Assembly: GCA_027492205.1 (NCBI GenBank)
Contig: JAOZFN010000008.1
Coordinates: forward strand, 1 to 64,000
Length of the DNA: 64,000 nt
Direction of reading: 5' to 3'
DNA from: Thermoproteota archaeon
GTDB taxonomy: Archaea; Korarchaeota; Korarchaeia; Korarchaeales; Korarchaeaceae
The notes under the pieces are model-generated. The model ran no database searches. It had not been told where the DNA came from and was given only the letters and a program-made list of their open reading frames with translations. Positions 39,373 to 64,000 of this stretch are shown one piece after another. The translations under genes and the position numbers were made by a program. Each line of letters opens with the position of its first letter. Position 1 is the first letter of the stretch.

Positions 39373-40773
39373 GTGGTGATGGTCGCCTTGGAGCTGACAG
39401 AACAGATCCCGGCGCAGATCAGGCACCTGGCCAGGGGGGTGAGGGGGCAGGGAGGGCTAATCCTCGTGGCGCTGGGCAACTCTTCGGCAGTCCTGCTGGG
39501 GGCGCTGACGTGGCTCCTGCTCGCGAGGCTCCTGACGGTCGCCGACTATGGGAGAGTCAACTACCTGGCCTCTATCGCCATTTTGGCCTCTGGAGTCGCT
39601 TCCCTGGGAATGCCGGCCACCCTGCAGGCATACCTGCCAAGGGGGGACGAGCACATCTCTTCGGGAGCTGCGCTAACCGCCCTGTCCCTTGGGCTGGCCC
39701 TGGGGATCCCCCTTGCGGCCCTTCACCCCACCCTGCCGCTGATCACGGTGGGTTACGCCCTCTACACGGTAGCCACGAGCGAGAGGCTCGGGAGGAGGGA
39801 CTACGGTGGGTACGCCCTCCTGCAGGTCCTGAGCAGGCTCGGGCTCCTGGCCTGGGTCCTCGCGGCCGTCCCGTCGCTCGGCGCGGATGGGGCGCTCCTG
39901 GGCTTCGCCCTAGTCAACCTCGCCTCCGCCTCCTGGATCCTCAGGGGGGTCGCCAGGCCCCGGGAGGGGCTCGCCTCGGTGAGGTCCCACATAAGGTTCT
40001 CGCTCGCGGCCCTGGCCATGGCCATGACGTCCTCGGCCGCCCTGAGGCTGGACAAGGTGCTGATCGGTTCCCTCTACGGGGAGGAGACCCTTGGGTACTA
40101 CCAGCTCGCCTTCCAGTTCTACGCCGCTATTGCCGTCATTCCGGCCAGTCTGAGGAGCTACCTCCTCCCAGAGAGGTCTTCAGGCCGGGGAACCCGGAGG
40201 GCGGAGCTGATCGGGATTGCCCTCTCGGCGCTCGCGGCCTGCCTCGGGGCTCTCCTCTCGCCGCTGGTGATAAGGTCTCTCTTCCCCGACTTCTATCCCG
40301 AGAGCGCCGCGGCCGCCAGGATCGCCTCCCTCGCGGCCGTTCCGGGGGCCGCCTTCAGCGTCTGGTCGGCCGGGAAGCTGAGTCAGGAGAGGCCCACCCT
40401 GGTCCTGGCGGCCAACCTCCTCTCAATTTCCACCCTCGCGGCCTCCATAGCGGTCCTGGGAAGGTTGGCCGGGATCCCCGGTCTCGCCGCCTCCCTCCTG
40501 GTCTACAGATCCTCCGCCGCGGCCGCCGCGGGCGCGCTCGACAGGCTCGAGTCGCGCGGGGCCCTGCTCCCGCGTGGCCAGCGCGGGAGGGGGATGTCTG
40601 ACCGGGCCGCCTCAGCGGCCGGGGGGAAGTTGGCGGAGGCCGATGCTGGCCGGCAGAAACCGTCGCGCCGTCCGGGGGGGCCAACCCGGTCCCCCTCGGC
40701 GGTCCAGGTATGGGTTGCCGGGGGTGGCCCCCCACCCGGCACTCCCCACAAGGGGCCCACCTCGGTCTCCTAG
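39373..40773 (+). CDS. Wzx-type oligosaccharide flippase; the last ~70 aa are low-complexity
   Basis: LARLL...DYG, LDKVLIG and LGYYQLA motifs; about 12 TMs. Confidence 0.75.
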   Translation: MVMVALELTEQIPAQIRHLARGVRGQGGLILVALGNSSAVLLGALTWLLLARLLTVADYGRVNYLASIAILASGVASLGMPATLQAYLPRGDEHISSGAALTALSLGLALGIPLAALHPTLPLITVGYALYTVATSERLGRRDYGGYALLQVLSRLGLLAWVLAAVPSLGADGALLGFALVNLASASWILRGVARPREGLASVRSHIRFSLAALAMAMTSSAALRLDKVLIGSLYGEETLGYYQLAFQFYAAIAVIPASLRSYLLPERSSGRGTRRAELIGIALSALAACLGALLSPLVIRSLFPDFYPESAAAARIASLAAVPGAAFSVWSAGKLSQERPTLVLAANLLSISTLAASIAVLGRLAGIPGLAASLLVYRSSAAAAAGALDRLESRGALLPRGQRGRGMSDRAASAAGGKLAEADAGRQKPSRRPGGPTRSPSAVQVWVAGGGPPPGTPHKGPTSVS

Positions 40774-40785
40774 AGGGCCGGAGAA

Positions 40786-40832
40786 CGTTTCAAAATGTTT
40801 CTGAAACGGTACTCCACAAAAGACTTTTAATC
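40786..40832 (+). promoter_or_regulatory. Inverted repeat CGTTTCA-N9-TGAAACG upstream of BRE/TATA of the S-layer-like gene
   Basis: Perfect 7-bp arms at 40786-40808, then CAAAAG and TTTTAA. Confidence 0.55.
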
Positions 40833-40856
40833 AGCCCGCCTCGGTGGGTCCCACAG

Positions 40857-40898
40857 CTGGCTACCGCCGCCCGACGGGGCGGCGTAGCCAGGAGGTGA
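40857..40898 (+). promoter_or_regulatory. 15-bp 5'-UTR hairpin abutting the SD sequence GGAGGTGA
   Basis: CTGGCTA-c-CGCCGCCC-GACG-GGGCGGCG-TAGCCAG. Confidence 0.65.
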
Positions 40899-40903
40899 AA
40901 GAG

Positions 40904-43438
40904 ATGAAGAGATACGCGATATTTGCTGGGGTGCTGCTGGCCGTCCTGGCCCTCACCATGGTGCCGGGCGGCGTCTACGCGGTTCCCCCCGCGCCCGCAG
41001 AGCCCTCCACCGTCTGGAGCGATCCAGCAGATTGGTACATGACCGTCCAGGGCCTGCTCGACAGCGACTTCTACGCCCTTTACCCCTTCGAGCACGACAA
41101 GAGCCTGAAAATCGGGTTCAGCAAGTACGGCGAGATGATAAACGGCGTTGAGAACGTTGGCCTCGAGTACTGGACCGTCGACCCCTTCGCCCCGCCGGCG
41201 GGCAGCGACCTCGGCAGCGTCCCCAAGAACCTCTGGCTCCAGGGCTGGCTCATCAACATAACCTACACCCACGTGACGTTCGGAAGCAGGAACGTCTGGG
41301 CCATGGCCCAGTTCTCCGACGCCGACTCCTGGGGAGGCCCCTGGATCAGGGTCGACTTCCCCGGCGACAACGACTCGACCTACGGCCCTGAGGACCCGAG
41401 GGATCCCGGCTACATCCAGGACGAGACCCCGTACATGGCCTCCGGCCTGGTCCACGGCGGCAGGAAGACCAACGGCACCGCCATAACCTACCCGATCAAG
41501 GTGCTCTACGCCGGCCCCAGGAAGTTCATAGCGGTCCTGACCACCGACCTCTACGACCACATCGGCTACCAGACCGGCGACACCTCCAGCGACGTGCCCC
41601 TCGTGAGGATAGTCTTCACCATAATCTTCAACAAGGTCAAGAAGCAGGTCATAATACTGAAGGACATAAAGAGCATCATACCCGACAAGACGATGATCGG
41701 CCAGATGTTCGTCCAGTTCAGCAACAGGGGAGAGGTCGACCTGGGCAACGAGGACGTCGGCTACAAGGCCTACGCCCACTTCTACACGGCTGGAACCTGC
41801 GGAGCTGAGGACGCCTCGAGTGAAGGTCAGACCACGGTTTACGGGACCTCCTGGGAGCTCGGGCAGACGGCCTCCCCCAGCTCGGCCACGTGCTACGGGC
41901 CCGAGCCCAACAGCGAGCCGGACACCTTCGACGTGGCCCAGGTGATCAACCCGAACGTCCAGCCATCCGGAGTGGTTTGGTACGCCGCCTTCTGGCCCAG
42001 CCTCTCGGACTGGACCATCGACGGCTGGCCGATGTACTGGCGCTCCATCGACGCAGGCGACAAGCACTACATCGACCTGGCGACCGCCACGCCGCCCGAG
42101 CCGGAGATACCCTACTACATAGGCGAGTGGGACTTCTACCTCGACGACGTCACGGGCAACAAGGTCCAGTTCAGGGGAGTCACGGTCTACGGGGTCGTGG
42201 ACAAGCACGACGCCGACGACGCCAACATGGGGGCCGGCCACTTGAACGTCATAGACAGGGAGGCCATCAAGTACCTCCTCCAGGAGGTCTTCAACCCGTG
42301 GGACCTCAGGAAGGCCCTGAAGAACCCGAGCGACGACGACTCGACCAAGCTCAGCAGGTGGGTCGAGTTCTTCACCATCGACGACGTGAAGAACGGTGAG
42401 AACATAACGCTGTCCGGGGCGCCGGAGTATGGAGACTGGTACGCCTACTCGGACTTCCCGGAGAGGCTCGTGCTGATATGCGACGGCTCGGCGACCCTGC
42501 TCGAGCGCGACTCTAACTACACCGTCTATCCAGGGTACGAGAACATAACGCTACGCTCACCCGTGGTCTCGGCGATGGCCGATGGATGCATCCTCAAGGT
42601 GCTCTACTCGACCAAGGAGAACTACGACGGCGACACCTACTCCGAGGGCAGGTACGAGTGGATAGTGGTCGGCAGGGAGACCAAGGACGGCAAGCTCGTG
42701 CCCTCAGCCGCCACGCTCAGCGCCGCCATAGTGAGCGCCGCCGTGAAGAACAAGGGCTTCGAGACCTGGTACATGGGCATGGACATCCCGTTCCAGAGAC
42801 TGCCATACGTCATGTCCAACTTCGGCTCCCCGTACACGGACAAGGAGGACTTCTACTTCTACGGCGACCAGGGAGGAAGGCCCGCCCTCAAGGACCACTG
42901 GTGCAACCCGTTCGCCCACCCGATCCCCGTGGCCAGCGCCAACCTCATAGCCATAGGAGGTCCGCTCGCAAACGTCCTGACGGAGTACGTCAACGAGTTC
43001 GTGCCGGCCATCTACCTCAGCGGCCAGATAGCCAACGGGCTCAACGGCCACGTCGACCCCGACCTTGAGGGCAAGGTCCTGGCCAGCACCTGCTGGAGCA
43101 GGAACGCCTACAAGAACGAGGGCGACGTCCACTACGCCGTGATCGCCACCTACAAGGACCTCAACGGCACCGTGATCCTGGAGATCTGGGGCTTCAAGGC
43201 CGAGGACACCTACTGGGCCGCAGACTGGTTCCACGACTTCTGGCTACTCCCAGACTACAAAGAGTATAGCCTGCAGAACATCAAGAGCGGCATAACGGCC
43301 ATAATACTGGAGCTCGACTACAGCGAGTACTCGACCAACCACTACCCGGACACCAGGATAGTCGAGTGGCTCGGCACCATCAGCGAGACCACCTGGCCTG
43401 CTGCTGAGATTCAGCAGCCGCCGCACCCCGACCCGTGA
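40904..43438 (+). CDS. Probable S-layer / major cell-surface glycoprotein
   Basis: Signal peptide; acidic and aromatic composition; about 7 N-X-S/T sequons; LIAIGGPLAN motif seen in archaeal S-layer C-terminal domains; extreme C/G third-position bias; strong SD and terminator. Confidence 0.7.
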   Translation: MKRYAIFAGVLLAVLALTMVPGGVYAVPPAPAEPSTVWSDPADWYMTVQGLLDSDFYALYPFEHDKSLKIGFSKYGEMINGVENVGLEYWTVDPFAPPAGSDLGSVPKNLWLQGWLINITYTHVTFGSRNVWAMAQFSDADSWGGPWIRVDFPGDNDSTYGPEDPRDPGYIQDETPYMASGLVHGGRKTNGTAITYPIKVLYAGPRKFIAVLTTDLYDHIGYQTGDTSSDVPLVRIVFTIIFNKVKKQVIILKDIKSIIPDKTMIGQMFVQFSNRGEVDLGNEDVGYKAYAHFYTAGTCGAEDASSEGQTTVYGTSWELGQTASPSSATCYGPEPNSEPDTFDVAQVINPNVQPSGVVWYAAFWPSLSDWTIDGWPMYWRSIDAGDKHYIDLATATPPEPEIPYYIGEWDFYLDDVTGNKVQFRGVTVYGVVDKHDADDANMGAGHLNVIDREAIKYLLQEVFNPWDLRKALKNPSDDDSTKLSRWVEFFTIDDVKNGENITLSGAPEYGDWYAYSDFPERLVLICDGSATLLERDSNYTVYPGYENITLRSPVVSAMADGCILKVLYSTKENYDGDTYSEGRYEWIVVGRETKDGKLVPSAATLSAAIVSAAVKNKGFETWYMGMDIPFQRLPYVMSNFGSPYTDKEDFYFYGDQGGRPALKDHWCNPFAHPIPVASANLIAIGGPLANVLTEYVNEFVPAIYLSGQIANGLNGHVDPDLEGKVLASTCWSRNAYKNEGDVHYAVIATYKDLNGTVILEIWGFKAEDTYWAADWFHDFWLLPDYKEYSLQNIKSGITAIILELDYSEYSTNHYPDTRIVEWLGTISETTWPAAEIQQPPHPDP

Positions 43439-43454
43439 GGTATCACAGGGGAAC

Positions 43455-43621: not shown

Positions 43622-44803
43622 TCACAGTCCCCTCGCGCCGAGGATCGGGGCGCCCTGCGAGGACCCGACCACCTCGAGGTACACGGACAGCACCATCCCC
43701 GCGATCCTGGACCAGTCGAACTGCCAGGGCGGATCGGCGGTCACCCCACTGTCCAAGAGTCCGAGGGCCTCCCTGATGGCGGCCGATATCGAGCCGGGCT
43801 CGACCGAGTCGATCCTCGCCCAGAGGGGGTACCCCCTCAGGGCGTCTATGGCCCCGCCCACTGGCGTGGCCGCTATGGCCAGCCCGGCGGCCATGGCCTC
43901 CACCAGGGCGAGGCCGAGCCCCTCGGCCCTCGCCGGGTTCACGAAAACGTCGGCGGCCGCGAACAGCTCGTGGACCCTGTCCGCGGGGACCCAGGGGAGG
44001 ACGACGCCCGCCCCCCCGCCCTCGACTATCCTCCTGACCTCCCCCCTCAGGTACCCGTCCCCCGCGATCACGAAGAAGATATCGTCCTTCTCCCTCCTGA
44101 GCCTCGCGGCGGCCAGGGCCAGCTCGAGCGAGCCCTTGACGTCGACCAGTCTACCGGCGTAGAGGACTATCTTCGCCTCCTGCGGGAGGCCGAGCCTCTC
44201 CCTGATCTCCGCCCTCCTCCTTCGGGCCTCTTGGAACTTTGTGACGTCGACGCCGCCCGGTATGACCCTGACGCTCCCCGCGCCGTACCTCCTCACGTAG
44301 TCGGCCACGTGCCCCGATATTGCGATCACGGCGTCGACCCTCCCCAGCAGCCACCTGAGGACCGTCCTGTTGAAGGCCTCCTCCAGGAGGCTCGCCCCGC
44401 CCCCCGGGTGGAGGGCGTACGTCCCGTGGACGGTTAGTACCGTGGGGTAGTCCCCCAGGAGCAGGGCGGAGATCCAGGTGGTGGGGAAGTGGTGGCCGTG
44501 GACGTGCACCACGTCGGGGTCGAAGGACCTGACGGCGCCCACCAGCCTGTCCGGCCTGACGGGGATTCGGAGGCTCCTCAGGGTCTTTAAGACCAGTCCG
44601 GGTGGGGAGACGCAGCGGACCCCCGAGAATGGCGGGCCCTCGGATAGGAGGCCCTCGCTCCGTTGGCCACAACAGCCCACCACTAGCACGTTGCAGTTCC
44701 TCGACAGGGCGCGGGAGAGCCCCCAGACGTGTCTTGCAATCCCTCCCCAATCCGGCGGGTAGAAAGGGGTCACCTGGACGACCCTCAACTCAATCCCCCT
44801 CAC
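43622..44803 (-). CDS. GT4 family glycosyltransferase
   Basis: GGIARH, GRLVDVKG and EGLGLALVEAMAAG motifs. Confidence 0.92.
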   Translation of the reverse strand: MRGIELRVVQVTPFYPPDWGGIARHVWGLSRALSRNCNVLVVGCCGQRSEGLLSEGPPFSGVRCVSPPGLVLKTLRSLRIPVRPDRLVGAVRSFDPDVVHVHGHHFPTTWISALLLGDYPTVLTVHGTYALHPGGGASLLEEAFNRTVLRWLLGRVDAVIAISGHVADYVRRYGAGSVRVIPGGVDVTKFQEARRRRAEIRERLGLPQEAKIVLYAGRLVDVKGSLELALAAARLRREKDDIFFVIAGDGYLRGEVRRIVEGGGAGVVLPWVPADRVHELFAAADVFVNPARAEGLGLALVEAMAAGLAIAATPVGGAIDALRGYPLWARIDSVEPGSISAAIREALGLLDSGVTADPPWQFDWSRIAGMVLSVYLEVVGSSQGAPILGARGL

Positions 44804-44828: not shown

Positions 44829-46331
44829 TTATCTCAACCCCAGCCTGGCCTTAATCAACCCCAACAGGAGGGACCTCCTCTCCAGCTTGTCCGGAAGAGA
44901 TGCCCTCCCGCTCCCCTGAGCGTATAGGTCTCTCCCCTCCATGTATGCCGGGGGGGCCAGCCCCAGCATGCCGAGCGCGGTTGGCGTTACGTCCTCGACC
45001 CGGGCGTCCCCGTCAACCTCTAGCCTTTCGGAAGCTATCAAGACACCATAGAGCTCATGACTCCCCCCACAGACCAGGGGACTGGTCAACTTTCCATCGA
45101 GAGTCAGTCCCGGTCGAATCACGAAGTCCGGCTCGATCTCGATGACGAGGTCAGGTCCCAGCCCGACGCGAGGACCTGAGTATAGGTCTCTCGGATCGTG
45201 GATGTCCCTAACTATCTTAAGGCCCTCCCTCTCCCCCTCGGCCTCAAGGGCCCTGGCGATCTTGAGGGCCTCGCCGCTCATGGGGCTCCAGGGACCCCTC
45301 CCCGAGATCGCCACAAACCTGCCGCCTATCCCCATCGTCACTCCATCTCTCCCCTGAGAGCCGAATTCCTCCCTGAAGTGCATCGAGACCCCGAGCCGGG
45401 AGGCGGCCCTGAGCAGCTTGGGCAGGGCGGCCCTCGCCAGGCTGCTCGAATCGAACAGGTATCTGCCCAGCCCCGCCAGCCAGGATCCCAGGCCCCCCCT
45501 GATTCCAGAGTACAGGCCCGAGTGAATCATCCAGTTGAGCAGGAGAAGGGACCGCCGCGAGCCGTAGAACCCGTGATCTGACACCACCAGGAGGTGCTCG
45601 TACTCTACCCACTCCAGGGCCTCCTCGATCATGGACTCCACGGCCTCGTAAGTCATCATCACGTGTGGGCCAGGTTCTCCTGCCATCCAGAAAAGATGGG
45701 ACGCCCTGTCCGACACGGTGAATACCAGCGCGGCCAAGTCCCAGCTCCTTCCATCCAGCGCCCTCCTGAAGACCTCAAGCTTCTGCTTCTCAAGGTTTAC
45801 GGCCTCCTCGATTGCCCTCTCTGGTCTATCTCCGTGAAGCACGAAGGGATCGCCCGGGAGGTCGGGTACGTAGCCCCTTGGGATGATCTTATCCTCCCCC
45901 GGTGGGAAGACTATCCCACTCGAGGTCGGCGCTGGGAGGCCTGACACCAACCTCCCTAGCAGCGGCGTCGGCGGCCACGTCATGGGGACGTTCACTACTA
46001 CGCTCTTCATGCCCAAGTACGAGAGGATCTCCCAGAGCGTGGGGACCCTGAGGCTCAGGCTCGAGACCAGCCCCCCCTTGCGGTCGGAGAACTGATACAC
46101 CCCGTGTCTCCCGGGCCCGGTCCCCGTGAAGATGCTGGACCATGCCGACGCGCTGTTTGGGGGTATCGTGGATCTGAGCCTAGCCAGGGTGCCAGACCTG
46201 GACGCCTCACCCAGCGGCCCATCCGACCTGGAAAGGTAACGCCTAGCGGCCTCGTATTCCATTCCATCTATCCCGACGACTAGGAGCCTAACGTTGGACT
46301 TCCCCATAGCGAGGAGCTCCCACCCACTCAC
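44829..46331 (-). CDS. Alkaline phosphatase superfamily (type I phosphodiesterase/NPP-like) protein; start may be ATG 46307
   Basis: GIDG, RSTIPPNSASAW, PGRHGV, DRASH, SDHGF, GSH and DVTPT motifs. Confidence 0.85.
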   Translation of the reverse strand: MSGWELLAMGKSNVRLLVVGIDGMEYEAARRYLSRSDGPLGEASRSGTLARLRSTIPPNSASAWSSIFTGTGPGRHGVYQFSDRKGGLVSSLSLRVPTLWEILSYLGMKSVVVNVPMTWPPTPLLGRLVSGLPAPTSSGIVFPPGEDKIIPRGYVPDLPGDPFVLHGDRPERAIEEAVNLEKQKLEVFRRALDGRSWDLAALVFTVSDRASHLFWMAGEPGPHVMMTYEAVESMIEEALEWVEYEHLLVVSDHGFYGSRRSLLLLNWMIHSGLYSGIRGGLGSWLAGLGRYLFDSSSLARAALPKLLRAASRLGVSMHFREEFGSQGRDGVTMGIGGRFVAISGRGPWSPMSGEALKIARALEAEGEREGLKIVRDIHDPRDLYSGPRVGLGPDLVIEIEPDFVIRPGLTLDGKLTSPLVCGGSHELYGVLIASERLEVDGDARVEDVTPTALGMLGLAPPAYMEGRDLYAQGSGRASLPDKLERRSLLLGLIKARLGLR

Positions 46332-46442: not shown

Positions 46443-47981
46443 TTGAAGGGAATGAAGGCTCTACTGATCGTGCTGGACGGCCTATCCGTTGAGGTCGTGG
46501 AGAGGGGCCTGCGGGAGGGGAGGCTCCCAACCCTCGAGAGACTGGGGGGGGTTGGGGCGACGGGCATACTTCGCTCCGCCGTGCCCCCGGATACCGCTGC
46601 CGCCATGGCCTCCCTGCTAACCGGGTCCGGCCCCGGGAGGCACGGGGTCTTTTCTCTCCTCATACCAGAGGCCAGGAACGGGCTGCTCAGGGTGAGGCCG
46701 GCCCAATACGCTGACATAAGGGTACCCACCCTGTTTGACTACTCCGCCCGCACTCGAACCTCCATGGCGGCCTTCGGGATTCCCCTCCTCAGCCCGGTCC
46801 CAGAGCCCCCGGGGGGGTTCGCGGTGCCGGGCTTTGCTTCGGCCCCCGGGTCGAAGGCCCGGCCGGCCTGGGTCGACGAGTGGCTTGAGGATGCTGGCTT
46901 TGAGGACGACGTCCCAAGAAGCTTCTACGGCCTTGATCCACACGATCAGGCTCGGATCTTGAGGGAGAGGATGAGGTTGACCGTTGACTTGTTCCTCCAG
47001 CTGGTCGAGGGGCTCAAGTCCCCCCCAAGGATCTCCATCCTCTGGCTTCCGGAGACGGACCGGGCAGGCCACACAATCTGGGATCACCGGGAACTCATGC
47101 TGAAAGTGTACGAAGAAGCGGACAGGGTGGTCTCCAGGCTGGTCGATCACTATGGTCTAGATGAGACCGTCATTGTCGTCACGGGCGATCATGGGTTCAC
47201 CTCCAGACTCTCAGAGTTCTTCCCGAACTATCTCCTCCTAAGACACGGCCTCCTCAAGCTCAGGGGAAAGATCCTCCCTGCCCTGAAGAGGATCACATCT
47301 CTGCTAGCCGAGTGGCTCGTTGAGACCTCAAGGGCGGTTTGGAACCTGGCAATCGGCAAGGGGTTCATATCCGAGAGGGAGAGGGAGAGACTGGCCATAA
47401 GGCTGGCTAGCCGGCTGGTGTTGGACTACCCAGACATCGACCTCTCCAAATCTCTGGCGTTTTCCATCTCAGACCTGGCCCCCTACGGAATGATCTACAC
47501 CCCCCGGGACATCCTAAACCCACCCGTGGGGGAGGATCGTCTGAGGGAGGAGCAGGACCTCCTCTCTAGACTTAAGGAGATAGAGGGGCTCGAGCGCTTC
47601 GTGGACGAGCTGATACCAGGGAGTCGGGTATATGGGACGTCCTGTCCCGGGGCACCGGCTATACTCTTCAAGACCGCCAGGGGTTACAGCCCGGTCGGTA
47701 GGCTGTCTGCCAGCGTGCGAGGCCCCTCGAGGGCGTCATCAGGCGGAATGCACGACATTATCTCCCCCATATTCATTGCGGGGCCGGGAGTCCCTGCCGG
47801 GAGGCTCGACCGCGTCGTGGGGATAGAGGATGTCTTTCCGACCCTGCTATCGCTCGCGGGTCTCCCGCTCTGGAGGGGGCTGCAGGGCAGGCCCGTGCTG
47901 GGTCAGGCCGAGGGGGAGGTAGACCTCGCCCGGGTGGCGGCGAGCAGGGCGATTAGGAGGAGGCTCAGGCCCAGGAGGTGA
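46443..47981 (+). CDS. Alkaline phosphatase superfamily (NPP-like) protein
   Basis: VLDG, RSAVPPDTAAA, PGRHGV, DRAGH, GDHGF, GMH and DVFPT motifs. Confidence 0.85.
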   Translation: MKGMKALLIVLDGLSVEVVERGLREGRLPTLERLGGVGATGILRSAVPPDTAAAMASLLTGSGPGRHGVFSLLIPEARNGLLRVRPAQYADIRVPTLFDYSARTRTSMAAFGIPLLSPVPEPPGGFAVPGFASAPGSKARPAWVDEWLEDAGFEDDVPRSFYGLDPHDQARILRERMRLTVDLFLQLVEGLKSPPRISILWLPETDRAGHTIWDHRELMLKVYEEADRVVSRLVDHYGLDETVIVVTGDHGFTSRLSEFFPNYLLLRHGLLKLRGKILPALKRITSLLAEWLVETSRAVWNLAIGKGFISERERERLAIRLASRLVLDYPDIDLSKSLAFSISDLAPYGMIYTPRDILNPPVGEDRLREEQDLLSRLKEIEGLERFVDELIPGSRVYGTSCPGAPAILFKTARGYSPVGRLSASVRGPSRASSGGMHDIISPIFIAGPGVPAGRLDRVVGIEDVFPTLLSLAGLPLWRGLQGRPVLGQAEGEVDLARVAASRAIRRRLRPRR

Positions 47982-50900: not shown

Positions 50901-51389
50901 GTAGTGCCTTGTCATATCGAGGGAGGGGAGATAGGCAAGTTTCGGGTAGAGCCAGAGCGTCAAAGCGATGTGATAGGCGGAGAGGGCCACCAGTCCCGCG
51001 ACCTCCTCAGGGCCCAGGTTGGAGTTGGGCTGGGGCCGCGATCTCGCTCGGCGGGAGGCGAACTTCACAATTCCAACGATACCCAGAGCCAGTTCACCCA
51101 CCAGTAGGGTAACCCTTCTCGACCCCGGACTCAGCGGGAGGGTCGTGAGGGTGGCCCAGCCCATAATCAGGTAGCTAACCACGTACGATGCGGAGACGAT
51201 CTCTGGGGGAGTCAACGAAGTTGTAAGGCCGATCAGGTCCAGCAAAACGAGTCCCGGCAGCAGCCAGAGTAGCGGCGCCGAGACCAGAACCCCCACGTCT
51301 CCTAGGCCGTCGGCCCCCGCCAGCAAGAGCGACGTGGCGGCGACCAAGGCGAGGCTTCCCACCGCCCCCGCTCGTCTCAAGACAGTCAC
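47847..51389 (-). CDS. Large multi-pass membrane protein, GT-C-like N-terminal half plus extracellular domain and C-terminal TM
   Basis: 1180 aa; many TMs; LDMTRHY and YPPFLRAH in the first large loop; paralog of 51398-55609. Confidence 0.7.
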   Translation of the reverse strand: MTVLRRAGAVGSLALVAATSLLLAGADGLGDVGVLVSAPLLWLLPGLVLLDLIGLTTSLTPPEIVSASYVVSYLIMGWATLTTLPLSPGSRRVTLLVGELALGIVGIVKFASRRARSRPQPNSNLGPEEVAGLVALSAYHIALTLWLYPKLAYLPSLDMTRHYVASVILWRSPQIYGNPLPFLTTYPPFLRAHLGALIAFSGGRDEIVKLSLSAVSALAPITLYSTARSLLRSERVALLTAALLDVSLLTDGLEWVRVAFRGEDFFVSVFRATPFNVYQLGVVYDSRYMGLMLFCFLIWLLLSGRRLRRALTPMIAAAVAGLYLTHVGEAVAVAGPLAAYSLLSQKGRDLRPTLLGITAGLVMSAVAQILLDTALPFYTVSWQEIIVLGAMLGILSLSYALPGLGAPIIRGVTSGKRAVLLLSALFGLEVSGLILWATAGEGAGWANKLGVVPWYQYPVLLGLVGAALPLAVSAHLEWGDDRSKLILGLLVGVILLGRLVSLVNVMFFFTRFWEWRLIPLIKLLAVLAWAGGLELLLTGPPGGGEGGRRGRLRAVLAALMVSTLVLEAVPAFAGTAGLRKLAKSSAPSEAEIEVLRDLRLIFDRDPLSYPLTVTYRSLRDLMLADPPASVLPLSFSLDTLRAYTPEATLAAMYWPPPYTHPYLYVDKRRDLGPMGGTYVEGMLRNMRPAYESENALLYNLSRYSPVSGDGEVVALVPLDGLSPESLRLLGLLARFTRGLTTALFPDLGVILRSHTLILTFDPATGEGEGGWERAIPSLAMSFARSGGRVVVYRSGGRGFFSERMLEPIQGTIRATSVCVDGEEVPLPAPVEVPRSRPGEGVELLATYVGTGGEVPLVVAMDVGGGRIYLMNVEPLLSPAADSKGSWDEGILGLLLSISPTEPSQREVERNVRTLSYLGELRADSATLTASSAVLLPVGKVFLRAADIRLTVAPGSAAGLAADRLTLSVLNLSLGGETGRSCGSGLYVCIQASELSASAKNLRIWVVSPEGRTLEFSLGDTVIRIEGEGLMAVRTPEVMTEGRTVFEEPRRLEFLSYTASLLVKRRVIVEGGVEIVPEVVDRYLILRKVRPTPGSLIRLDPPLTSREEPKPGAPEVAGGLLAFLVHLAIFRRLASHWSPPGPEPPPNRPARRHPGEVYLPLGLTQHGPALQPPPERETRER
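49253..49484. repeat. 232-bp exact direct repeat, copy 1
   Basis: Identical by eye to 53407-53638. Confidence 0.92.
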
Positions 51390-54300: not shown

Positions 54301-55609
54301 CGCGGGCGGGCCAGTCCCCCCCGATGATTGTGCGTCTCAGCCTACCTGCCCAGCCGGGTCTCCCCAGTCCAACCCCAGTTCTCAACATGAACTCCGACGA
54401 AACCAGGAAGAGCGCGGGCAGGAGGCACGCCGCCATCTCCTGAGCACCGATCGAGTACACTGGCAGAATCCTGTCCAGCGCAATGAAGGCAGCTCCCGCC
54501 GACGCCAGGGCGGCCGCAGACCCAAGGGTCACGGGTCGCCCGTGCCATCTCCTCCCCGATAGGTTTAACGCTGCCACCGCAACCGACAGGAGAGCGCCCT
54601 CCACCACGTGAGTGAGCTGGTTGGCGAGGACGAGGAGGAATATGATCAGCGCACCCCGACCCGCGGAAAGGTCACGTCTCCTGGGGAGGCTGAAGATGAC
54701 CCAGAGAGCGGCGAGGGTTAGGAGAATGGCGGCGAACTTAGCGTCGTAGACAAGGCCGGGCAGGTAGGCACCCCCCGATAGCAGCTCGAACGGAAGCTTC
54801 GAGAGCCCACCGGCCACCAGCCTCCTAAGCCAGGGGAACCCTGTTGAGTAGATGGACAGATCTCCAAGGGCGGCGGCAGCTGCGGGGAACCTCCGCCATC
54901 TCCGGCCAGCAAGAGCCCCTGCCGTTGCGTAGAAGGCCAGGGGGAGCACCCAGCTCACCGAGGAAGTGGCTGACATAACGACGGCGTCAGGCGTCCGCGA
55001 AAGGTATATGAACGCTCCCAAGTGCGCCCTGAGGAACGGGGGGTAAGAAAAGAATATCTCCACTGGCTTCCCGTAAAGGAGAGGGGTTCTCCAGAGTATG
55101 ATGGCCCCCGCGTAGTGCCTCACCATGTCGGTGTCCGGGAGGTACGCTATCTCTGGATACCCCACAACCGTGAAGGCCGCGCGTGTTCCGATCAGCGCCA
55201 GCAAGACGATCCAGTCGTTCGGGTGATAGAGGCCCAACCCTGGAGAGACCGCTTCGACCCTCCTTGAGATCGCCAGGCCAGCTACCCCCTCGGCCGCTGT
55301 GGACAACGTCAGGGCGACCGCCTTGGATCGAACGTCGAGCGTCAGCGTGGCGAGGGAGAGCAACCCCACGAGAGAGTAGCTGAGGGGAACTGAGATCGCA
55401 AGCTGCTCCAGAAGGCTCATTCCCTTCGACGCTCCAATGATCCTCAAAAGCACGAGCCCTGGGAGCAGCCAGCAGAGAAGGTAGGAGAGTCCGAGCCGGG
55501 CGAGTCCCAGGGGAATTCCGGCAGCTTCATCGATAAACAGGAGGAGCGATACGAGAACTAGGGCGAGTTCTGGAGACTTTTTCCCCAGGTCCGAGGGAGG
55601 ATCCCCCAT
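51398..55609 (-). CDS. Large multi-pass membrane protein, GT-C-like, with an extra beta-rich extracellular insert
   Basis: 1403 aa; TDMVRHY, YPPFLRAHLGA, LTHV.E and WEWRL shared with the paralog. Confidence 0.7.
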   Translation of the reverse strand: MGDPPSDLGKKSPELALVLVSLLLFIDEAAGIPLGLARLGLSYLLCWLLPGLVLLRIIGASKGMSLLEQLAISVPLSYSLVGLLSLATLTLDVRSKAVALTLSTAAEGVAGLAISRRVEAVSPGLGLYHPNDWIVLLALIGTRAAFTVVGYPEIAYLPDTDMVRHYAGAIILWRTPLLYGKPVEIFFSYPPFLRAHLGAFIYLSRTPDAVVMSATSSVSWVLPLAFYATAGALAGRRWRRFPAAAAALGDLSIYSTGFPWLRRLVAGGLSKLPFELLSGGAYLPGLVYDAKFAAILLTLAALWVIFSLPRRRDLSAGRGALIIFLLVLANQLTHVVEGALLSVAVAALNLSGRRWHGRPVTLGSAAALASAGAAFIALDRILPVYSIGAQEMAACLLPALFLVSSEFMLRTGVGLGRPGWAGRLRRTIIGGDWPARAALAAALYVYFLGLVVWIDVSGWWGGIRIAKGSVPWYGYAATFGLSGILSIFSLKLLGSTDDDEMRGLLTLVTFAGLCLIAGSSISEISARYGLIRYWEWRLVRLAKLPLSLLAGLTLTRVGEAVAAGGPSQRRAILRRSLTVIAIASIVLYEGGPTLVGSSGLVRLAHIRAPDASQLADLSAAREVFEGDPEAYPLAITTDTLTRLTLAAPPLEIVPLALSLDTLRAYTPEATLAAMYWPPPYTHPYLYVDKRRDLGPMGGTYVEGMLRNMRPAYESENALLYNLSRYSPVSGDGEVAFLVASNRVISPNDASSLCLLAFARLGYSVTTFLDMDPAALQKDVIVVPYDPPFDNGTFLTLHAPRDDVSDWTPSWVERVPLEGLDLPGTEAEEAYLSFRLAPMVQTDNINLTLDLSLPRGIPLNSVGYIGVIFSYESRGNFSLLELFFTPAGEIYGALRIVNGESWTEAVTIPRRYRKLGDWEPGGQLTMQVRVRPDVVSLSINGEEVFQGEVPVPPGRVGVARGRAHSPVLKTFEAEYYQRIAWGDWGPYLTGENLLSIAESGRSVVVYNLNGYNYFSELLMRISAKLLNSTSVSGLVSGTLPPTPVEVSEARATGEVSVLANYTTPEGSISPYILRLSVKGGEVYLVNAFPIFRHVREIGGVNRDVLDRLYSILAPMELIGEELGVQKVDKNVEEGYYVKGLSGADMRVEAKSAVLFGLPENLSSGSSGLLSVRVVDLRADGEEVLSVDNCSQVGLSADEGLLRTGSVEVGRGPLWEGWSAPSGLVLSGLYYPVTLSSPLVLGAWSRGPLNVLVARNGSAAESRLLTLPPGSYAVEVTPINGSVAALFRRPTLELNGTLTIYGPQRLEFVPYHASTLKDRRVILEGEASLAIGLVDRNYLLISEVSFSGEWFLDPPLEGPTGLIRTSTLLAALTITPPILIAVLALRVLNGGGSHRSELNEDQTTL
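53407..53638. repeat. 232-bp exact direct repeat, copy 2
   Basis: Identical by eye to 49253-49484. Confidence 0.92.
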
Positions 55610-55694: not shown

Positions 55695-56639
55695 ATGTCG
55701 GAAGGGAAGGGGTCGTCGCGGGAGGGGGCTAAGATCGTAGCGTGTATTCCGGCCTATAACGAGGAGGAAACCATCGGAGAGGTGGTTTCATGTGCGAGAA
55801 GGTACGTGGATGTTGTGCTGGTCTGCGACGACGGCTCGACCGACAGGACCGCTGAAAGGGCCGAGATGGCCGGAGCCATCGTCCTAAGGCACCCCAGAAA
55901 CAGGGGGTACGGGGCGGCCCTCAGGACCCTCCTCACGGCAGCTCTGGAATACGACCCGGATGTCGTCGTGACGCTGGACGCGGATGGTCAACACGACCCA
56001 GCCGACATCCCCTCGATCGCGGCCCCGATAATAGAGGGGCGGGCAGACGTTGTGATAGGTTCTCGCTTTTTATCCAGCGATTCAAGAAAAGAGGTTCCAA
56101 GATATAGGGAGTTAGGCATCAGAGTCATAACTAAAGTGGCCAGCGGGATCTCCGGGCTGGACATCAGCGACTCCCAGAGCGGGTTTAGGGCCTTTAGTAA
56201 GAGGGCCGTCAGATCCATTAAAATAATGGACGATGGGATGGGGGCCACGCTTGAGGTTATCCAACAAGCTGCCGCCCTCGGCCTCCGCGTTGAGGAAGTT
56301 CCGGTGGTGATACGCTACAGGGGATTGGAGACGTCTACCTACAATCCAATCAGGCAAGGGCTCGGCCTACTGCTAAAGCTCGCGGATTTGATTGGATGGA
56401 GGAGGCCGCTTGTCTCCTTTGGAGTGCCGGCGGCGGCCTCTCTGATAGTCTCTATGGTATTCACCGTTAAGCTGCTTAGAATATTCAACTTGACCAGGTA
56501 CTTCAGCGTTCCGCTGGCATTACTCTCCACTGCCTTCGGGATAGTAAGTGCGATTCTGTTCTCCACCGGGGTCACTATATATGCCGTTAAGAAGGCCGTC
56601 AGGGAGGAGATGAAGATGAGGTTAGCATCCCATCGCTAG
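55695..56639 (+). CDS. GT2 glycosyltransferase, DPM-synthase-like with two C-terminal TMs
   Basis: IPAYNEE, DDGSTD, NRGYG, DADGQH, GSRF and DSQSGFRA motifs. Confidence 0.92.
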   Translation: MSEGKGSSREGAKIVACIPAYNEEETIGEVVSCARRYVDVVLVCDDGSTDRTAERAEMAGAIVLRHPRNRGYGAALRTLLTAALEYDPDVVVTLDADGQHDPADIPSIAAPIIEGRADVVIGSRFLSSDSRKEVPRYRELGIRVITKVASGISGLDISDSQSGFRAFSKRAVRSIKIMDDGMGATLEVIQQAAALGLRVEEVPVVIRYRGLETSTYNPIRQGLGLLLKLADLIGWRRPLVSFGVPAAASLIVSMVFTVKLLRIFNLTRYFSVPLALLSTAFGIVSAILFSTGVTIYAVKKAVREEMKMRLASHR

Positions 56640-56885: not shown

Positions 56886-57098
56886 TCAGAGGTAACCCAG
56901 GCTCCTGAGTCGCTCCTTTATCTCCTCCTCCTCCTCCGGAGAGTAAACCTGTTCACTAGCCTCCTCCGAGAGGACCTCCTGAAGAAGGAACTCAACGAGA
57001 GCCTCCACCGAAGAGAAGTCGGGGGTGTTCTCTACCCACTTCCTCGCCTTCTCATAGAGTTCCCGTGGGATCTCCACGCTGACTTTCTCGCCTTCCAC
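56886..57098 (-). CDS. Small CopG/RHH protein with C-terminal EEEEIKERLRSLGYL tail
   Basis: VSVEIPRELYEK...FSSVEALVEFLL; upstream TATA. Confidence 0.8.
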   Translation of the reverse strand: MEGEKVSVEIPRELYEKARKWVENTPDFSSVEALVEFLLQEVLSEEASEQVYSPEEEEEIKERLRSLGYL

Positions 57099-59363: not shown

Positions 59364-59616
59364 GGGGCTAACGCTCCCACGCTCGTTGATGAAGACCCAG
59401 GGCGGCAAAAAATTTTGGCATCTGGCTCCGGTTTGCCTGGGCCAGGCGGTCCCTCTGCAGGTAGCCCGGGTTCCCTAGCATGCCCCACTTCTGGCCCTAA
59501 CTGGGGATCTCAAGCCTACATTCCTCGCCGCGCACGCGCATTCGCCACAAGAGACCGCCGCTTCCAACCGGATCAAGAAGGCTCCACGAGATTCATTGAA
59601 TCGCCTCCCGAGGAGT

Positions 59617-60258: not shown

Positions 60259-60265
60259 CTCCCGC

Positions 60266-60826
60266 TCAGGCGATTAGACCCATACCCCGCAGGGCCCCCA
60301 GGACGACCTCCGCCTCCTGCTCGGGAGTCATCGTCTCCGAGTCCACCACAACCTCCGGGCTCTCGGGCTCTTCATACGCGTCCTGCACCCCGGTCATGTT
60401 CCCCAGCTCTCCCCTGATGGCCCTCCTATACAGACCCTTCGGGTCCCTCCTCATGGCCGTCTCAAGCGAGCACCTCACGTAGACCTCGACGAACCTCAGC
60501 CCCTCCACCTCGACTATCTCCCTGACCTCCCTCCTGACACTCCTGTACGGCGAGACGAACGAGGCCACTACCGCCACTCCGTTTCTGGCCAGGAGCTTTG
60601 AGACGTAGGCCACCCTCCTGAGGTGTCGCTCCCTGTCCTCCCTGCTGAATCCGGCCTCCGGGCTGAGCCACCTCCTGACCTCGTCGCCGTCTAGCACCTC
60701 GACGCGCCAGCCCATCTCCCTCAGCTTCCTGGCCAGAACCCCCGCGAGCGTGGTCTTCCCTGCCGCCGGGAGACCCGTCAGCCAGACCACGAAACCCTCC
60801 CTAGGGGATCCGGGGCCCTCCGCCAC
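60266..60826 (-). CDS. cysC: Adenylyl-sulfate kinase
   Basis: WLTGLPAAGKTT, LDGD, GFSREDR, SPY, RDPKGLY and TGV...YE motifs. Confidence 0.95.
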   Translation of the reverse strand: MAEGPGSPREGFVVWLTGLPAAGKTTLAGVLARKLREMGWRVEVLDGDEVRRWLSPEAGFSREDRERHLRRVAYVSKLLARNGVAVVASFVSPYRSVRREVREIVEVEGLRFVEVYVRCSLETAMRRDPKGLYRRAIRGELGNMTGVQDAYEEPESPEVVVDSETMTPEQEAEVVLGALRGMGLIA

Positions 60827-60841
60827 CTCCAGGCACCTCCC

Positions 60842-62239
60842 TCAGCTCACGTCGACGAGGGGTTCCCCCCTCATTCCTCCGGGAATTTCCATCCCCACCA
60901 GCGACAGGATCGTGGGCGCCACGTCGTAGATCGTGGCTCCGAGCTCCCTGGGCTCCACCCTGTCCTCCGGATCGCGTATCAGATAGATCCCCTCCCAGTC
61001 GTGGACCGCGTCGTCGGGGCCGGTGTCGTTCTCCGGGAGGAACCACTCTCCGTGGCCCATCGTGCCGGCCGCGCGCCAGCTCAGGTCCCCGAAGTAGACC
61101 ATGAGGTCCGGGGCGTCCCCCCTCACCTCAGGGTAGATCTCGGCCGGCCTGTGGGCCTCCACGCCGAGGCTCCCGCCCCCGGGAACCCGGACCCTCCTCA
61201 GGTCGTCCACCAGCTGGGCCAGGGTGGACTCGAAGTCCTCCGGGCTCACCCTACCCTGGGGCTCCCTCCCCCTGAGGTTCACGAAGATCCTGGAGTAGTA
61301 GCCGCCCCACCCCCAGGCCACCGTCCTCTCCCAGTTCACCTTGACCTTCGCTAGTCCCGTCTGCTCCCTGGGCCTCTCCTCCAGGGCCAGGTAGCCGTTG
61401 TCCGCCAGCCACTCGTTGATCGCGAAGGCGCCGGTCATAGCCTTTGCCCCGTGGTCCGAGACGACGAGTATTGAGGCGTCCTTGGCGGCCCGAGCGAGCC
61501 TCCCTATTCCCTCGTCCAGGAGGCGGTAGTAGCGCTCGGCCACGTCGGCGAACTCGCTGTCCGGGACGTGCCTCGGGTGATCTGGGTCGAAGAACTTCCA
61601 GAAGGCGTGGTGGAGCCTGTCCAGTCCGATCTCGACGTACCACATCAGGTCCCACCTCTTCGCCCTCGCCAGGTGCTCGGCGACCCGGAGGTGCTGCCTG
61701 GTCATCTCGAAGAGCCTCTCCACCAGGGGGCCCCTGTCCTCGACCCTGAACTCCACGTCGTGTGTGAAGGTTCCCCCCGCGACCCTCTCGACCTCCAGCC
61801 TGAGCCACGGCGGGTGGGTGTAGTTCTTGGCCGTCGAGGGTGTGTGGAAGTCGCTGATCACCCACCCCTGAACCTTGAGGGGAGGGTAGGAGGGAGGGAA
61901 GGCTATCAGCAGGGCCTTCTTCCCCTCCCCGGCGGTGCGATCCCACACCGCCGGCCTCGTCAGGTTCCTGGAGGTCACTAGGTAGTACTCCCTGTACTCG
62001 CCGGGCCTCCTGTGCCTGAAGCCGTACATCCCCAGCTCCCCCGGAGTGAGGCCCGTGGCCATCACGGCCCAGGCGGGTACGGTTATGGGCGGGTGGCAGC
62101 TCCTCAGGGGGCCGTACCTGGCCCCGTCCATCAGCTCTGAGAGGTTCGGCATTTCGGGCAGGAACCTCTCGAACGCCAGCGACGGCGGCGCCGAGTCCAG
62201 CCCTATGACCATGACCCTCTCTCCAGCCACCTCAATCAC
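60842..62239 (-). CDS. Alkaline phosphatase superfamily (NPP-like) protein within the sat-cysC operon
   Basis: GLDS, PPITVPAW, DRLHH, SDHG, GPDDAVH and DVAPT motifs. Confidence 0.88.
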   Translation of the reverse strand: MIEVAGERVMVIGLDSAPPSLAFERFLPEMPNLSELMDGARYGPLRSCHPPITVPAWAVMATGLTPGELGMYGFRHRRPGEYREYYLVTSRNLTRPAVWDRTAGEGKKALLIAFPPSYPPLKVQGWVISDFHTPSTAKNYTHPPWLRLEVERVAGGTFTHDVEFRVEDRGPLVERLFEMTRQHLRVAEHLARAKRWDLMWYVEIGLDRLHHAFWKFFDPDHPRHVPDSEFADVAERYYRLLDEGIGRLARAAKDASILVVSDHGAKAMTGAFAINEWLADNGYLALEERPREQTGLAKVKVNWERTVAWGWGGYYSRIFVNLRGREPQGRVSPEDFESTLAQLVDDLRRVRVPGGGSLGVEAHRPAEIYPEVRGDAPDLMVYFGDLSWRAAGTMGHGEWFLPENDTGPDDAVHDWEGIYLIRDPEDRVEPRELGATIYDVAPTILSLVGMEIPGGMRGEPLVDVS

Positions 62240-63266
62240 TCCCCCCTCCTTCGAGGACGGCGGACCTCAGCCAGTCGAGGGCGCGGCGGGCGAACTCTCT
62301 CGCCTCCGGCTCGGGCAGGATGACGCCGACGGACTCCCGCTTCCCGCCCGCATTGTACCCGCTAGACCTCGCCATCTCGGCCAGGGACGTGAGGTCCAGG
62401 TCGAGCCCGTGGACCCTGGAGTATACCTGGGCGTACCCCCTCCTCCAGCGAGAGTTGATCGCGAGCACCGCGACCCGATCCCTGGACCAGGCGAACCTCC
62501 GCCCCACGGTGGAGATGAGGAGGTGGGGGGACTCGAACTCCACGTAGACGACGCTGCCGAAGTCTTCCACCCTGGCCTCTCTCAAGACCCTCTCGACCTC
62601 GGCCTCGGCGGACCTGTGCTTTATTATCCACTCCCCCATGCTCAGGAGCGATCTCGGATCCCCGTACCCCCTGCCGAGCGCGAAGACCGCGTCCCTGACG
62701 CCCTCCCTGTCCCCGACCCTGTAGTTCGCGTCGACGAGCTCGGCCAGCCTCTCGAGCTCCTCAACCCCCATTCCCAGCGAATCCAGCACTCTCAGCACCT
62801 CCCCGTAGACGGGGTGAGATCGGAGCGTGGGGCCCAGGTCGCCCGCGATGCCCAGGATCGATCGAAGGTCGGGCCGAGCTCCCATCAGGCGCGTGAGGTG
62901 CCAGCTCGCGGAGGGCTGACCCACGTCGACCAGCGAGATCCAGGAGGCCGGGAGGCGCCCCCTCGGCCTGACGTGGTGATCCACCAGCACCACCCTGCCG
63001 GCCCCGACCGCGGAGGCGGCCCTCTCCACGGACTCGACGGGCAGCGCCACGTCGAGCACCATCAGCGTGTCGAACGTCCCCAGGTCTCGCATCTCGTCGG
63101 CCGCCCGAGAGTCTAGCCAGTAGAACCCCAGCGGCGGCACGTAGAGCTCGGCGTGGTCTCCGAGCCAGTCGAGGATCAGGCTCGCGCTGGCGACGCCGTC
63201 GGCGTCCCAGTGGTGGAGGACGAGGGTGGCTCCGAGTTCTTCCGGATTCGGCAGCCTCGACTCCAT
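62232..63266 (-). CDS. DHH family phosphoesterase
   Basis: HHWDADG, LD, DHH and C-terminal GGK motifs. Confidence 0.8.
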   Translation of the reverse strand: MESRLPNPEELGATLVLHHWDADGVASASLILDWLGDHAELYVPPLGFYWLDSRAADEMRDLGTFDTLMVLDVALPVESVERAASAVGAGRVVLVDHHVRPRGRLPASWISLVDVGQPSASWHLTRLMGARPDLRSILGIAGDLGPTLRSHPVYGEVLRVLDSLGMGVEELERLAELVDANYRVGDREGVRDAVFALGRGYGDPRSLLSMGEWIIKHRSAEAEVERVLREARVEDFGSVVYVEFESPHLLISTVGRRFAWSRDRVAVLAINSRWRRGYAQVYSRVHGLDLDLTSLAEMARSSGYNAGGKRESVGVILPEPEAREFARRALDWLRSAVLEGGGSD

Positions 63267-63275
63267 CCCCTCCCC

Positions 63276-64000
63276 TCACCTGACGAAGGGGTCGTCGAAG
63301 CTCAGGATCGCCTCCGCCACCTCGGGCCTCATCACCTCCGGCGGCGGGACCTCCCCCCTCCCTATGAGCTCGCGTATCTTCGTCCCGCTGAACCTGATCC
63401 TATCGCTCTCGGGGTGGGGGCAGGTCCTCTCGTTGGCCAGCCCGCCGCACCTCCTGCAGTAGAAGAACTCCCTGAAGAACAGGGGTGTGATCCCGAGGTC
63501 CGGGAACTCCCTGAATATCTCCTGCGCGGCGTAGGGGGGGTAGAAGTTGCCGACGCCCGCGTGGTCCCTGCCGACGATGAAGTGGGTGCACCCGAAGTTC
63601 TTCCTCATGATGGCGTGGTGCACGGCCTCCCTCGGGCCGGCGTACCTCATCTCGTACCTTAGGATCGCGAGCACGGCGGTGTCCCTCGGGTAGTAGTGCT
63701 CTATCAGGGTCCTGTAGGCCTCGAGGATCACGTCGTCCCTGAAGTCTCCGGGCTTCTTCCTCCCGACGACGGGGTTGATGAACACGCCGTCGACGAATGC
63801 CAGGGCCGTCTTCTGCAGCTCCTCGTGTCCCCTGTGAGGGGCGTTCCTGGTCTGAAAGCCGACGACGGTCTTCCAGCCCTTCTCCTTGAAGAGGACGCGG
63901 GTCTCGACGGGCCAGAGGGTGTACCTCTCGTAGGGGTTAGGCACGGAGCCCACCAGCGTTACCCTCCCGCCCAGCAGGAGGTCTCCCATCTCGAGCGCGC
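63276..64000 (-). CDS. sat: Sulfate adenylyltransferase; 5' end lies outside the window
   Basis: FQTRN..HRGH, MRYAGPREA, RKNFGCTHFIVGRDHAG and CxxC...C.H zinc site. Confidence 0.95.
   Translation of the reverse strand, partial: ALEMGDLLLGGRVTLVGSVPNPYERYTLWPVETRVLFKEKGWKTVVGFQTRNAPHRGHEELQKTALAFVDGVFINPVVGRKKPGDFRDDVILEAYRTLIEHYYPRDTAVLAILRYEMRYAGPREAVHHAIMRKNFGCTHFIVGRDHAGVGNFYPPYAAQEIFREFPDLGITPLFFREFFYCRRCGGLANERTCPHPESDRIRFSGTKIRELIGRGEVPPPEVMRPEVAEAILSFDDPFVR

Follow-up and report, generated by a model that had tools for sequence, protein, structure and literature searches.

Introduction

The closest described relatives of the locus reported here, a sulfate-activation operon set among surface-glycosylation genes in 64,000 nucleotides of korarchaeal DNA (positions 1 to 64,000 of contig JAOZFN010000008.1, assembly GCA_027492205.1; this whole stretch is hereafter the window), are found in the Thermococcales. 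In Pyrococcus yayanosii the genes copG, sat, a 3'-phosphoadenosine 5'-phosphate (pAp) phosphatase gene, a type I phosphodiesterase gene and cysC form one cluster with an adjacent tauE (pych_17520-17570), and the DHH enzyme of this cluster (PYCH_17540/TON_1706) hydrolyses pAp (PMC8268124). The Thermococcus onnurineus counterpart is TON_1704-1707, in which TON_1705 is called a pyrophosphatase (PMC4463584); a table in PMC9653972 gives this enzyme a kcat of 2.1 s-1 and a Km of 18.8 uM, the former to be set against roughly 1e3-3e4 s-1 for family I pyrophosphatases (PPases). PMC8268124 notes that P. yayanosii has no identified sulfotransferase and leaves open what uses 3'-phosphoadenosine 5'-phosphosulfate (PAPS) in archaea that have neither a sulfotransferase nor a reductase. 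The Thermococcales papers frame the cluster in terms of assimilatory reduction or signalling, and the portions of them available do not propose paralogs of the alkaline phosphatase (AlkP) superfamily as PAPS users.

A second precedent comes from haloarchaea. Agl30 (VNG1056C) and Agl31 (VNG1057C) of Halobacterium salinarum, sulfatase-like proteins with an AlkP core, are required for N-glycan sulfation and add sulfate when expressed in Haloferax volcanii, with neither donor nor mechanism given in the available text (PMC11980604). They have been placed on the cytoplasmic glycan linked to dolichol phosphate (DolP) (PMC12624080), and Agl7 of Hfx. volcanii has been assigned to DolP-sugar sulfation (PMC3892788); the accessible parts of PMC11625862 and PMC11210485 hold nothing further on an AlkP-fold sulfation family. 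An AlkP-fold glycan sulfotransferase is therefore an already known kind of enzyme.

The window is the opening 64 kb of contig C7, which is 94 kb long, in a genome of 1.94 Mb that is 96.4% complete, and genes past position 64000 are numbered as on that contig, in the same numbering as the window. Its core operon is identical in gene set and order to the P. yayanosii and T. onnurineus clusters, from which the locus differs in that tauE is a pseudogene and three extra AlkP paralogs lie amid glycosylation genes. An earlier note on this DNA had treated such a sat/cysC/AlkP neighbourhood as lacking any functional description, which the published work on the core operon contradicts (PMC8268124, PMC4463584).

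That note had also proposed that all three AlkP proteins of the window transfer sulfate from PAPS or adenosine 5'-phosphosulfate (APS) to sugars, lipid carriers or S-layer glycans. The lack of a canonical consumer, the tracking of CysC and the Agl30/Agl31 precedent all speak for sulfate transfer; AlkP_A, the operon enzyme, probably does not belong in the proposal, and a Thr-sulfate intermediate is a conjecture about the chemistry. We propose, with a probability of about 0.6, that AlkP_B, AlkP_C and a further paralog just outside the window, AlkP_D, use PAPS to sulfate surface glycans on lipid carriers by way of such an intermediate, because alternatives are absent, the active site has diverged and the proteins depend phyletically on CysC. 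We infer the donor, the acceptor, the ping-pong chemistry and the target protein.

Results and Discussion

Sulfate activation without a recognizable consumer

All genes of the earlier note were recovered at their positions by profile searches of the window proteins. The operon is read from the minus strand and begins with a ribbon-helix-helix (RHH) gene, RHH-I, which encodes a probable autorepressor (C7:64445-64654, outside the window). Directly downstream lies sat, which encodes an ATP sulfurylase of 389 aa (63276..64000, starting beyond the window at C7:64445; PF01747 E 6e-94, NF003166), followed by the gene for a DHH/DHHA1-type phosphoesterase (62232..63266), AlkP_A (60842..62239; PF01663 E 1e-40) and cysC, which encodes the APS kinase (60266..60826; TIGR00455, 205 bits, above cut-off). 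From sat to cysC the genes are tightly packed, with intergenic gaps of -8 to +15 nt.

The DHH protein scores 27.1 bits against PF01368, just under the cut-off of 28.1, is 32.7% identical to the DHH protein of the Thermococcales operon, and has HWDxDG, DHH, GD and GGK motifs that are conserved in 34 aligned homologs. By sequence it is a probable pAp phosphatase, and the retention of such an enzyme in the operon implies a consumer that releases pAp.

No such consumer was recognizable in the window, as the earlier note had observed, and the same holds beyond position 64000 and genome-wide. The genome yielded no match to the sulfotransferase profiles PF13469, PF00685 and PF03567, none to PF14269, PF01507 or PF01077 (which cover arylsulfate sulfotransferase, CysH and sulfite reductase), and none to PF00884 at 1e-5; phmmer searches with 10 P-loop sulfotransferases returned 0 matches, and the P-loop 5'-phosphosulfate-binding (5'-PSB) motif was found nowhere in the genome. 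PF01507 is also lacking in four further genomes of the g1/g2 genera that are at least 90% complete (G001, G004, G005, G009). With Sat and CysC the organism can make PAPS, and neither a reductive nor a canonical conjugative consumer of it was found.

AlkP_A, the operon enzyme

The earlier note had treated the three AlkP proteins of the window alike, which the data do not support: AlkP_A belongs to a clade of its own and its active site differs. It groups in one clade (A) with the syntenic Thermococcales genes (support 1.0), shares 42% identity with the gene in the syntenic position of a Thermococcales genome, and occupies the same place, that of a PF01663 gene between DHH/sat and cysC, as in the TON_1705/PYCH_17550 cluster; synteny and clade together suggest that it is the ortholog of TON_1705/PYCH_17550. 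Its structural model (predicted local distance difference test score 95.6) has the fold of nucleotide pyrophosphatases/phosphodiesterases (NPPs). Searched against the sequences of the PDB, AlkP_A gave 0 matches by phmmer and, as a profile, weak NPP/PhnA matches only. The primary paper on TON_1704-1707 of T. onnurineus is reportedly that of Lee et al. 2009.

By analogy with TON_1705, AlkP_A is probably a helper of Sat that removes inorganic pyrophosphate (PPi). It is unlikely, in our estimate, that AlkP_A is itself a PAPS-using sulfotransferase or sulfuryl loader with the PPase activity a side reaction, even though several observations point that way. AlkP_A is tied to CysC above Sat: CysC is present in all 17 of the 41 relatives that have an AlkP_A ortholog, and a clade A gene lies beside cysC in 55 of the 56 CysC-positive Thermococcales described below, eight of which hold no candidate consumer other than A. 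Several Archaeoglobi-type loci (among L139-L159) have the order RHH-(DHH)-AlkP_A-cysC with no sat between, and the kcat of TON_1705 is small beside that of family I enzymes. On the other side, PPase activity has been measured for the syntenic TON_1705, and its Km is low (PMC9653972). R75, R77, R165, R317, R389, D409 and D410 are invariant in 17/17 clade A proteins and free to vary in the B-type proteins (AlkP_B and its like), and such an Arg-rich site fits one small polyanion; the membrane-type insertion described below is absent from A. AlkP_A also persists alongside canonical sulfotransferases (in 3/5 genomes of one set and in 13 Thermococcales), and a crude motif scan found no PPase motif of family I, family II or the membrane type elsewhere in this genome. 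AlkP_A was accordingly dropped as a transferase on the TON_1705 literature, its separate clade and its distinct active site, while the low kcat and the tie to cysC, tighter than that to sat in Archaeoglobi, allow for a possible PAPS-related function.

The wider distribution of clade A is in keeping with this association. Among 57 AlkP_A loci, many of them cut by contig ends, 39 showed cysC, 37 sat, 30 an RHH gene and 24 a DHH gene, and all 21 genomes with clade A in a 201-genome Halobacteriota sample have CysC (21/21). Two CysC-positive relatives, G034 and G031, have no AlkP_A; the former encodes a canonical sulfotransferase and the latter is 71% complete. A family I PPase motif match on contig C9 was rejected, as it does not lie within a PPase-like open reading frame (ORF). 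A predicted complex pairing AlkP_A, loaded with 2 Zn, with the tail of RHH-I scored 0.23 against a mark of 0.32 and was used neither way.

AlkP_B, AlkP_C and AlkP_D as candidate glycan sulfotransferases

AlkP_B (44829..46331, minus strand) and AlkP_C (46443..47981, plus strand) form a divergent pair of COG3379-type PF01663 proteins, and AlkP_D (C7:64678-66336, plus strand, outside the window; PF01663 E 8e-42) diverges from the operon. The three show 23-29% BLAST identity to A and among themselves and fall outside clade A in a tree whose deep branches are weakly supported. The family is large: 7911 of 8000 scored candidates match AlkP_A at 1e-10. No transmembrane (TM) segments were predicted in B, C or D, and their homologs adjoin genes for glycosyltransferases (GTs), epimerases, flippases and aglB.

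As the earlier note had it, the window's AlkP proteins carry the motifs PITVPAW, PNSASAW and PDTAAAM with conserved metal ligands and lack CxPxR; the formylglycine-sulfatase motif in its wider form, C/S-x-P-x-R, is likewise absent. The NPP-type two-metal ligands D, D, H, D, H, H are present together with a Thr nucleophile, replaced by Ser in B, and across 31 B-type proteins the ligands are kept while the nucleophile is Thr in 29 and Ser in 2. The Asn of the T-F-P-N motif of Xac NPP, three residues after the nucleophile, is Ala or Gly here. With the metal site kept and the Arg-rich positions of clade A free to vary, we infer for the B-type proteins one chemistry with many acceptors. Among B, C and D only C matched the sulfatase family PF00884, at 22.5 bits, below the cut-off of 25.

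The B-type proteins are also set apart from A by an extra insertion, some 40 residues long and helical in the model of D. In the thermophile B-types it has a net charge between +4 and +13 and a hydrophobic moment of 0.41-0.80, against 0.26-0.38 in 12/13 A proteins; these figures leave out AlkP_C, which the motif used had missed. We read this basic amphipathic insertion, present in AlkP_B, as a patch that would bind the inner membrane face. In comparison with the known NPPs (Xac NPP, ENPP1-7), the present proteins are 12-19% identical, have the T-F-P-N Asn replaced, lack a signal peptide, possess the extra insertion, and are cytoplasmic and operonic with sulfate activation.

Like Agl30, Agl31 and Agl7, AlkP_B, C and D are AlkP-core proteins within a glycosylation cluster that lack the P-loop sulfotransferase fold, and like Agl30/31 they keep an intact metal site and a hydroxyl nucleophile. 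Unlike Agl30/31, as the latter are described in print, they belong to PF01663 rather than to the sulfatase-like proteins, and they do not have the C-terminal LGY tail discussed below (their tail scores are at background). Our searches of the open-access literature turned up no account of the NPP-like COG3379 paralogs acting as sulfotransferases.

Distribution with CysC

The 81 genomes of the order of genome G037, inferred to be Thermococcales from its tree neighbours, were divided into 56 that are CysC-positive and 25, spanning three genera, that are CysC-negative. COG3379 paralogs outside the operon (B-type in this profile, defined as lying >2.3 kb from cysC and not by a per-protein tree, such that a few may be A duplicates) occurred in 27/56 CysC-positive and 0/25 CysC-negative genomes, and in six genomes the paralog lies >150 kb from cysC. 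Sulfatase-like PF00884 proteins were found in 39/56 and 1/25, respectively, with Thr at the nucleophile position wherever the motif region was listed and in 9/9 aligned sequences. The positive control, canonical PF13469 sulfotransferases, gave 13/56 and 0/25. The canonical P-loop enzymes (PF00685, PF13469, PF03567) differ from the AlkP proteins in having an unrelated fold and share with them the presumed role and the restriction to CysC-positive Thermococcales. Among the 43 CysC-positive genomes without a canonical enzyme, many of them closed, 35 have an AlkP-fold candidate and 8 have none.

Several observations weigh against PAPS-dependent sulfation by these proteins. Three unassigned matches in fragmented genomes without an adjacent cysC (G246, G289, G300) were excluded from the counts above; G289 and G300 are CysC-negative, and counting them as B-type would change 0/25 to 2/25. 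Kin are non-independent and many paralogs are operon-linked, so that Fisher P values are overstated. Outside the Thermococcales, 36/43 Halobacteriota that have only non-A COG3379 proteins show no CysC at 1e-25 (hand count), and in five haloarchaeal-type genomes Sat was found in 0/5 and CysC was missing from 4/5; the CysC-less COG3379 carriers whose loci were read look haloarchaeal by GC content and acidity. Two korarchaeal relatives, G007 (91% complete) and G012 (78%), also have non-A paralogs and no CysC. The presence of non-A COG3379 proteins without CysC or Sat in the haloarchaeal types means that PAPS is not the sole donor of the family. The nearest solved structures of this fold are all hydrolases (NPPs), and with PAPS as substrate such enzymes would by default cleave at phosphorus. 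Finally, genome G001, of the same genus, has the flippase immediately after RHH-II and cysC, and the search for orthologs there recovered those of A and D only; the block that here holds B, C, the giant membrane proteins and the secreted protein is therefore a variable insert, whose linkage to the operon in the present genome does not go back to ancient synteny.

These facts could be accommodated if B, C and D transferred or removed phospho-groups, for example glycerophosphate, inositol phosphate or sugar-1-phosphate, on surface glycans or lipids, unrelated to sulfate, with the link to cysC reflecting shared surface-glycan islands, an account to which we assign a low likelihood. AlkP members of the LtaS, EptA and PIG types are phospho-group transferases, and B, C and D have the NPP-type two-metal site and fold; none of these transferases was among the 50 structural matches listed, which excludes nothing. 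The occurrence of non-A paralogs in G007 and in the majority of the sampled haloarchaeal-type genomes, where CysC is lacking, fits this account, as does the frequent physical linkage of paralogs to the operon. However, nearly all archaea glycosylate, and yet no CysC-negative member of the Thermococcales sample has an assigned copy, and the six distant paralogs are not explained by a shared island. Haloarchaea may, moreover, activate sulfate otherwise: at a haloarchaeal-type locus (L178:9299-11665) a tail-less COG3379 paralog (PESSACW, second clade) lies beside a PF01507/CysD-type protein with an LGY tail, and from this locus haloarchaea may use APS or another activation route that does without Sat and CysC.

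That B, C and D are hydrolases for desulfation or nucleotide-sugar recycling, with the true sulfotransferase going unrecognized as a giant protein or an unassembled gene, is quite improbable. Hydrolysis is indeed the default for the fold, the genome falls short of complete, and big1 and big2 have no Pfam family, but the catalytic loops of these giant proteins would face outward whereas PAPS is cytoplasmic, PF13469 is lacking from most CysC-positive Thermococcales, closed genomes included, and Agl30/31 added sulfate rather than removing it (PMC11980604).

A proposed pathway

We consider it rather probable, on the same grounds as glycan sulfation by B, C and D, that the locus consists of a module supplying a sulfate donor and of interchangeable users. 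Supply would follow what is known from the Thermococcales: RHH-I would repress the operon, Sat would make APS, AlkP_A would remove the PPi that otherwise holds back Sat, CysC would make PAPS, and the DHH protein would clear the pAp left by sulfuryl transfer; TauE, broken here, would move the anion. AlkP_B, C and D would act as cytoplasmic two-metal NPP-fold enzymes held at the inner membrane face by the basic insertion, moving the sulfuryl group of PAPS onto the Thr or Ser nucleophile and then to a lipid-carried sugar. The lipid-linked glycan would be built by the neighbouring GT2 and GT4 enzymes and exported by the flippase, and AglB or the GT-C-like giant proteins would attach it to surface glycoproteins.

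In most Thermococcales of the kind for which the available text of PMC8268124 leaves the PAPS user open, two AlkP-fold groups would fill the slot, NPP-like COG3379 proteins and sulfatase-like proteins with a Thr nucleophile, both of which are currently annotated as hydrolases. If the proposal is correct, AlkP-fold sulfotransfer would no longer be confined to two haloarchaeal proteins but would be a trait of a large family, many "phosphodiesterases" of glycan loci would have to be renamed, and thermostable enzymes that sulfate sugars by a new mechanism would become available. The question is open to testing in Thermococcales that are amenable to genetics or with Haloferax as expression host.

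RHH proteins and the LGY tail

RHH-I is read as a repressor because its DNA-binding strand is invariant in the alignment and a palindrome, TTAATTA-N4-TAATTAA, lies upstream of it in 20/22 other loci; these features make it the probable autorepressor of the operon. A degenerate copy is present here at C7:64681-64698, between RHH-I and the divergent AlkP_D, and a better-scoring site occurs in the same genome at C17:28773. No RHH-I operator was found upstream of AlkP_B or AlkP_C, and there is thus no sign of co-regulation there.

RHH-II, the RHH protein of the window, ends in RLRSLGYL. The LGY tail, an acidic linker followed by a helix ending in LGY, occurs on RHH-I, on the class II protein RHH-II (56886..57098, minus strand; tail assigned by alignment) and on haloarchaeal B-type and sulfatase-like enzymes, as well as on Sat (L049, L055), CysC (L056, L065, P0121-3) and the CysD-type protein of L178; in 3 database proteins a class II RHH-LGY protein is fused to CysC. 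Agl30/31 also end in the tail, as read by eye from primers in PMC11980604. No tail was seen on the clade A enzymes examined, and in the present genome the true tail is confined to the two RHH genes, while several thermophile B-types end in a tail-like helix without the Tyr.

The tail may be a docking tag. We rank lower, and hold to be doubtful at best, a role as sulfuryl relay arm, in which AlkP_A would load sulfate from PAPS or APS onto the Tyr and the aryl sulfate would feed the AlkP-fold transferases; the Tyr-less thermophile B-types would then have to borrow the Tyr in trans from stand-alone RHH-LGY proteins. Were this so, sulfate would be carried on a protein in covalent linkage.

Some further loci bear on the tail's occurrence. 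L049 and L055, whose Sat carries it, are from Micrarchaeota, and L049 also encodes a 670-aa AlkP paralog with the tail. Some Thermococcales P-loop sulfotransferases (L233, L234) end in a helix and YGYL, resembling the LGY tail. The haloarchaeal-type glycosylation clusters L172, L173 and L174 have at least three LGY-tailed AlkP genes close together; L172 and L173 contain aglB and mix COG3379 and sulfatase-like LGY-tailed AlkPs.

Giant membrane proteins and other neighbours

The gene big2 (51398..55609, minus strand) encodes a 1403-aa multi-TM protein with 12 sequons, and big1 (47847..51389, minus strand) its 1180-aa paralog, with about 40% identity over 730 aa. Pfam searches matched no family in either, and comparing the two with a single AglB by hhalign found no match. 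The two have 7-10 TM segments, the Atlas neighbours of big2 are DUF6077, DUF6541, RgtA-like and DUF2206 proteins (0.93-0.95), and D, H, H, E and E residues are invariant among seven homologs. In these features big1 and big2 resemble GT-C-type membrane proteins, and they are candidate glycosyltransferases whose catalytic loops would face outward.

Between RHH-II and big2 lies a GT2 gene with two C-terminal TM helices (55695..56639, plus strand; PF00535), for which the best NCBIfam models, PpgS and AglJ, both score below cut-off, resembling polyprenyl-phosphate sugar synthases in sequence. A GT4 glycosyltransferase (43622..44803, minus strand; PF13439, PF00534) adjoins AlkP_B, and beyond it is the gene for an 864-aa secreted glycoprotein (40844..43438, plus strand), a possible glycan acceptor. 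The earlier label of S-layer-like holds for this protein weakly: it has one N-terminal hydrophobic, signal-like segment and 7 sequons, but PF05124 matched only below threshold (E 0.036). The Wzx/MOP-type flippase (39373..40773, plus strand) matches PF01943 at 31.1 bits, above cut-off, and a single aglB is located elsewhere in the genome.

The tauE pseudogene noted previously is genuine: an intact same-genus TauE aligns with it over three frames (60245-59621, minus strand), revealing frameshifts, and no second copy was found elsewhere in the genome. Between this remnant and RHH-II, at 57717-59408, are a DUF3782/PD-(D/E)XK gene, which has several genomic paralogs, and an orphan 250-aa ORF, both absent from this place in G001. 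The flippase carries a C-terminal extension of about 75 aa past the region (residues 2-391) that aligns with its same-genus ortholog, possibly due to a lost stop codon. The genes for AlkP_C and big1 converge and share 135 nt at their 3' ends (47847-47981), and the last 45 or so residues of big1 resemble antisense read-through.

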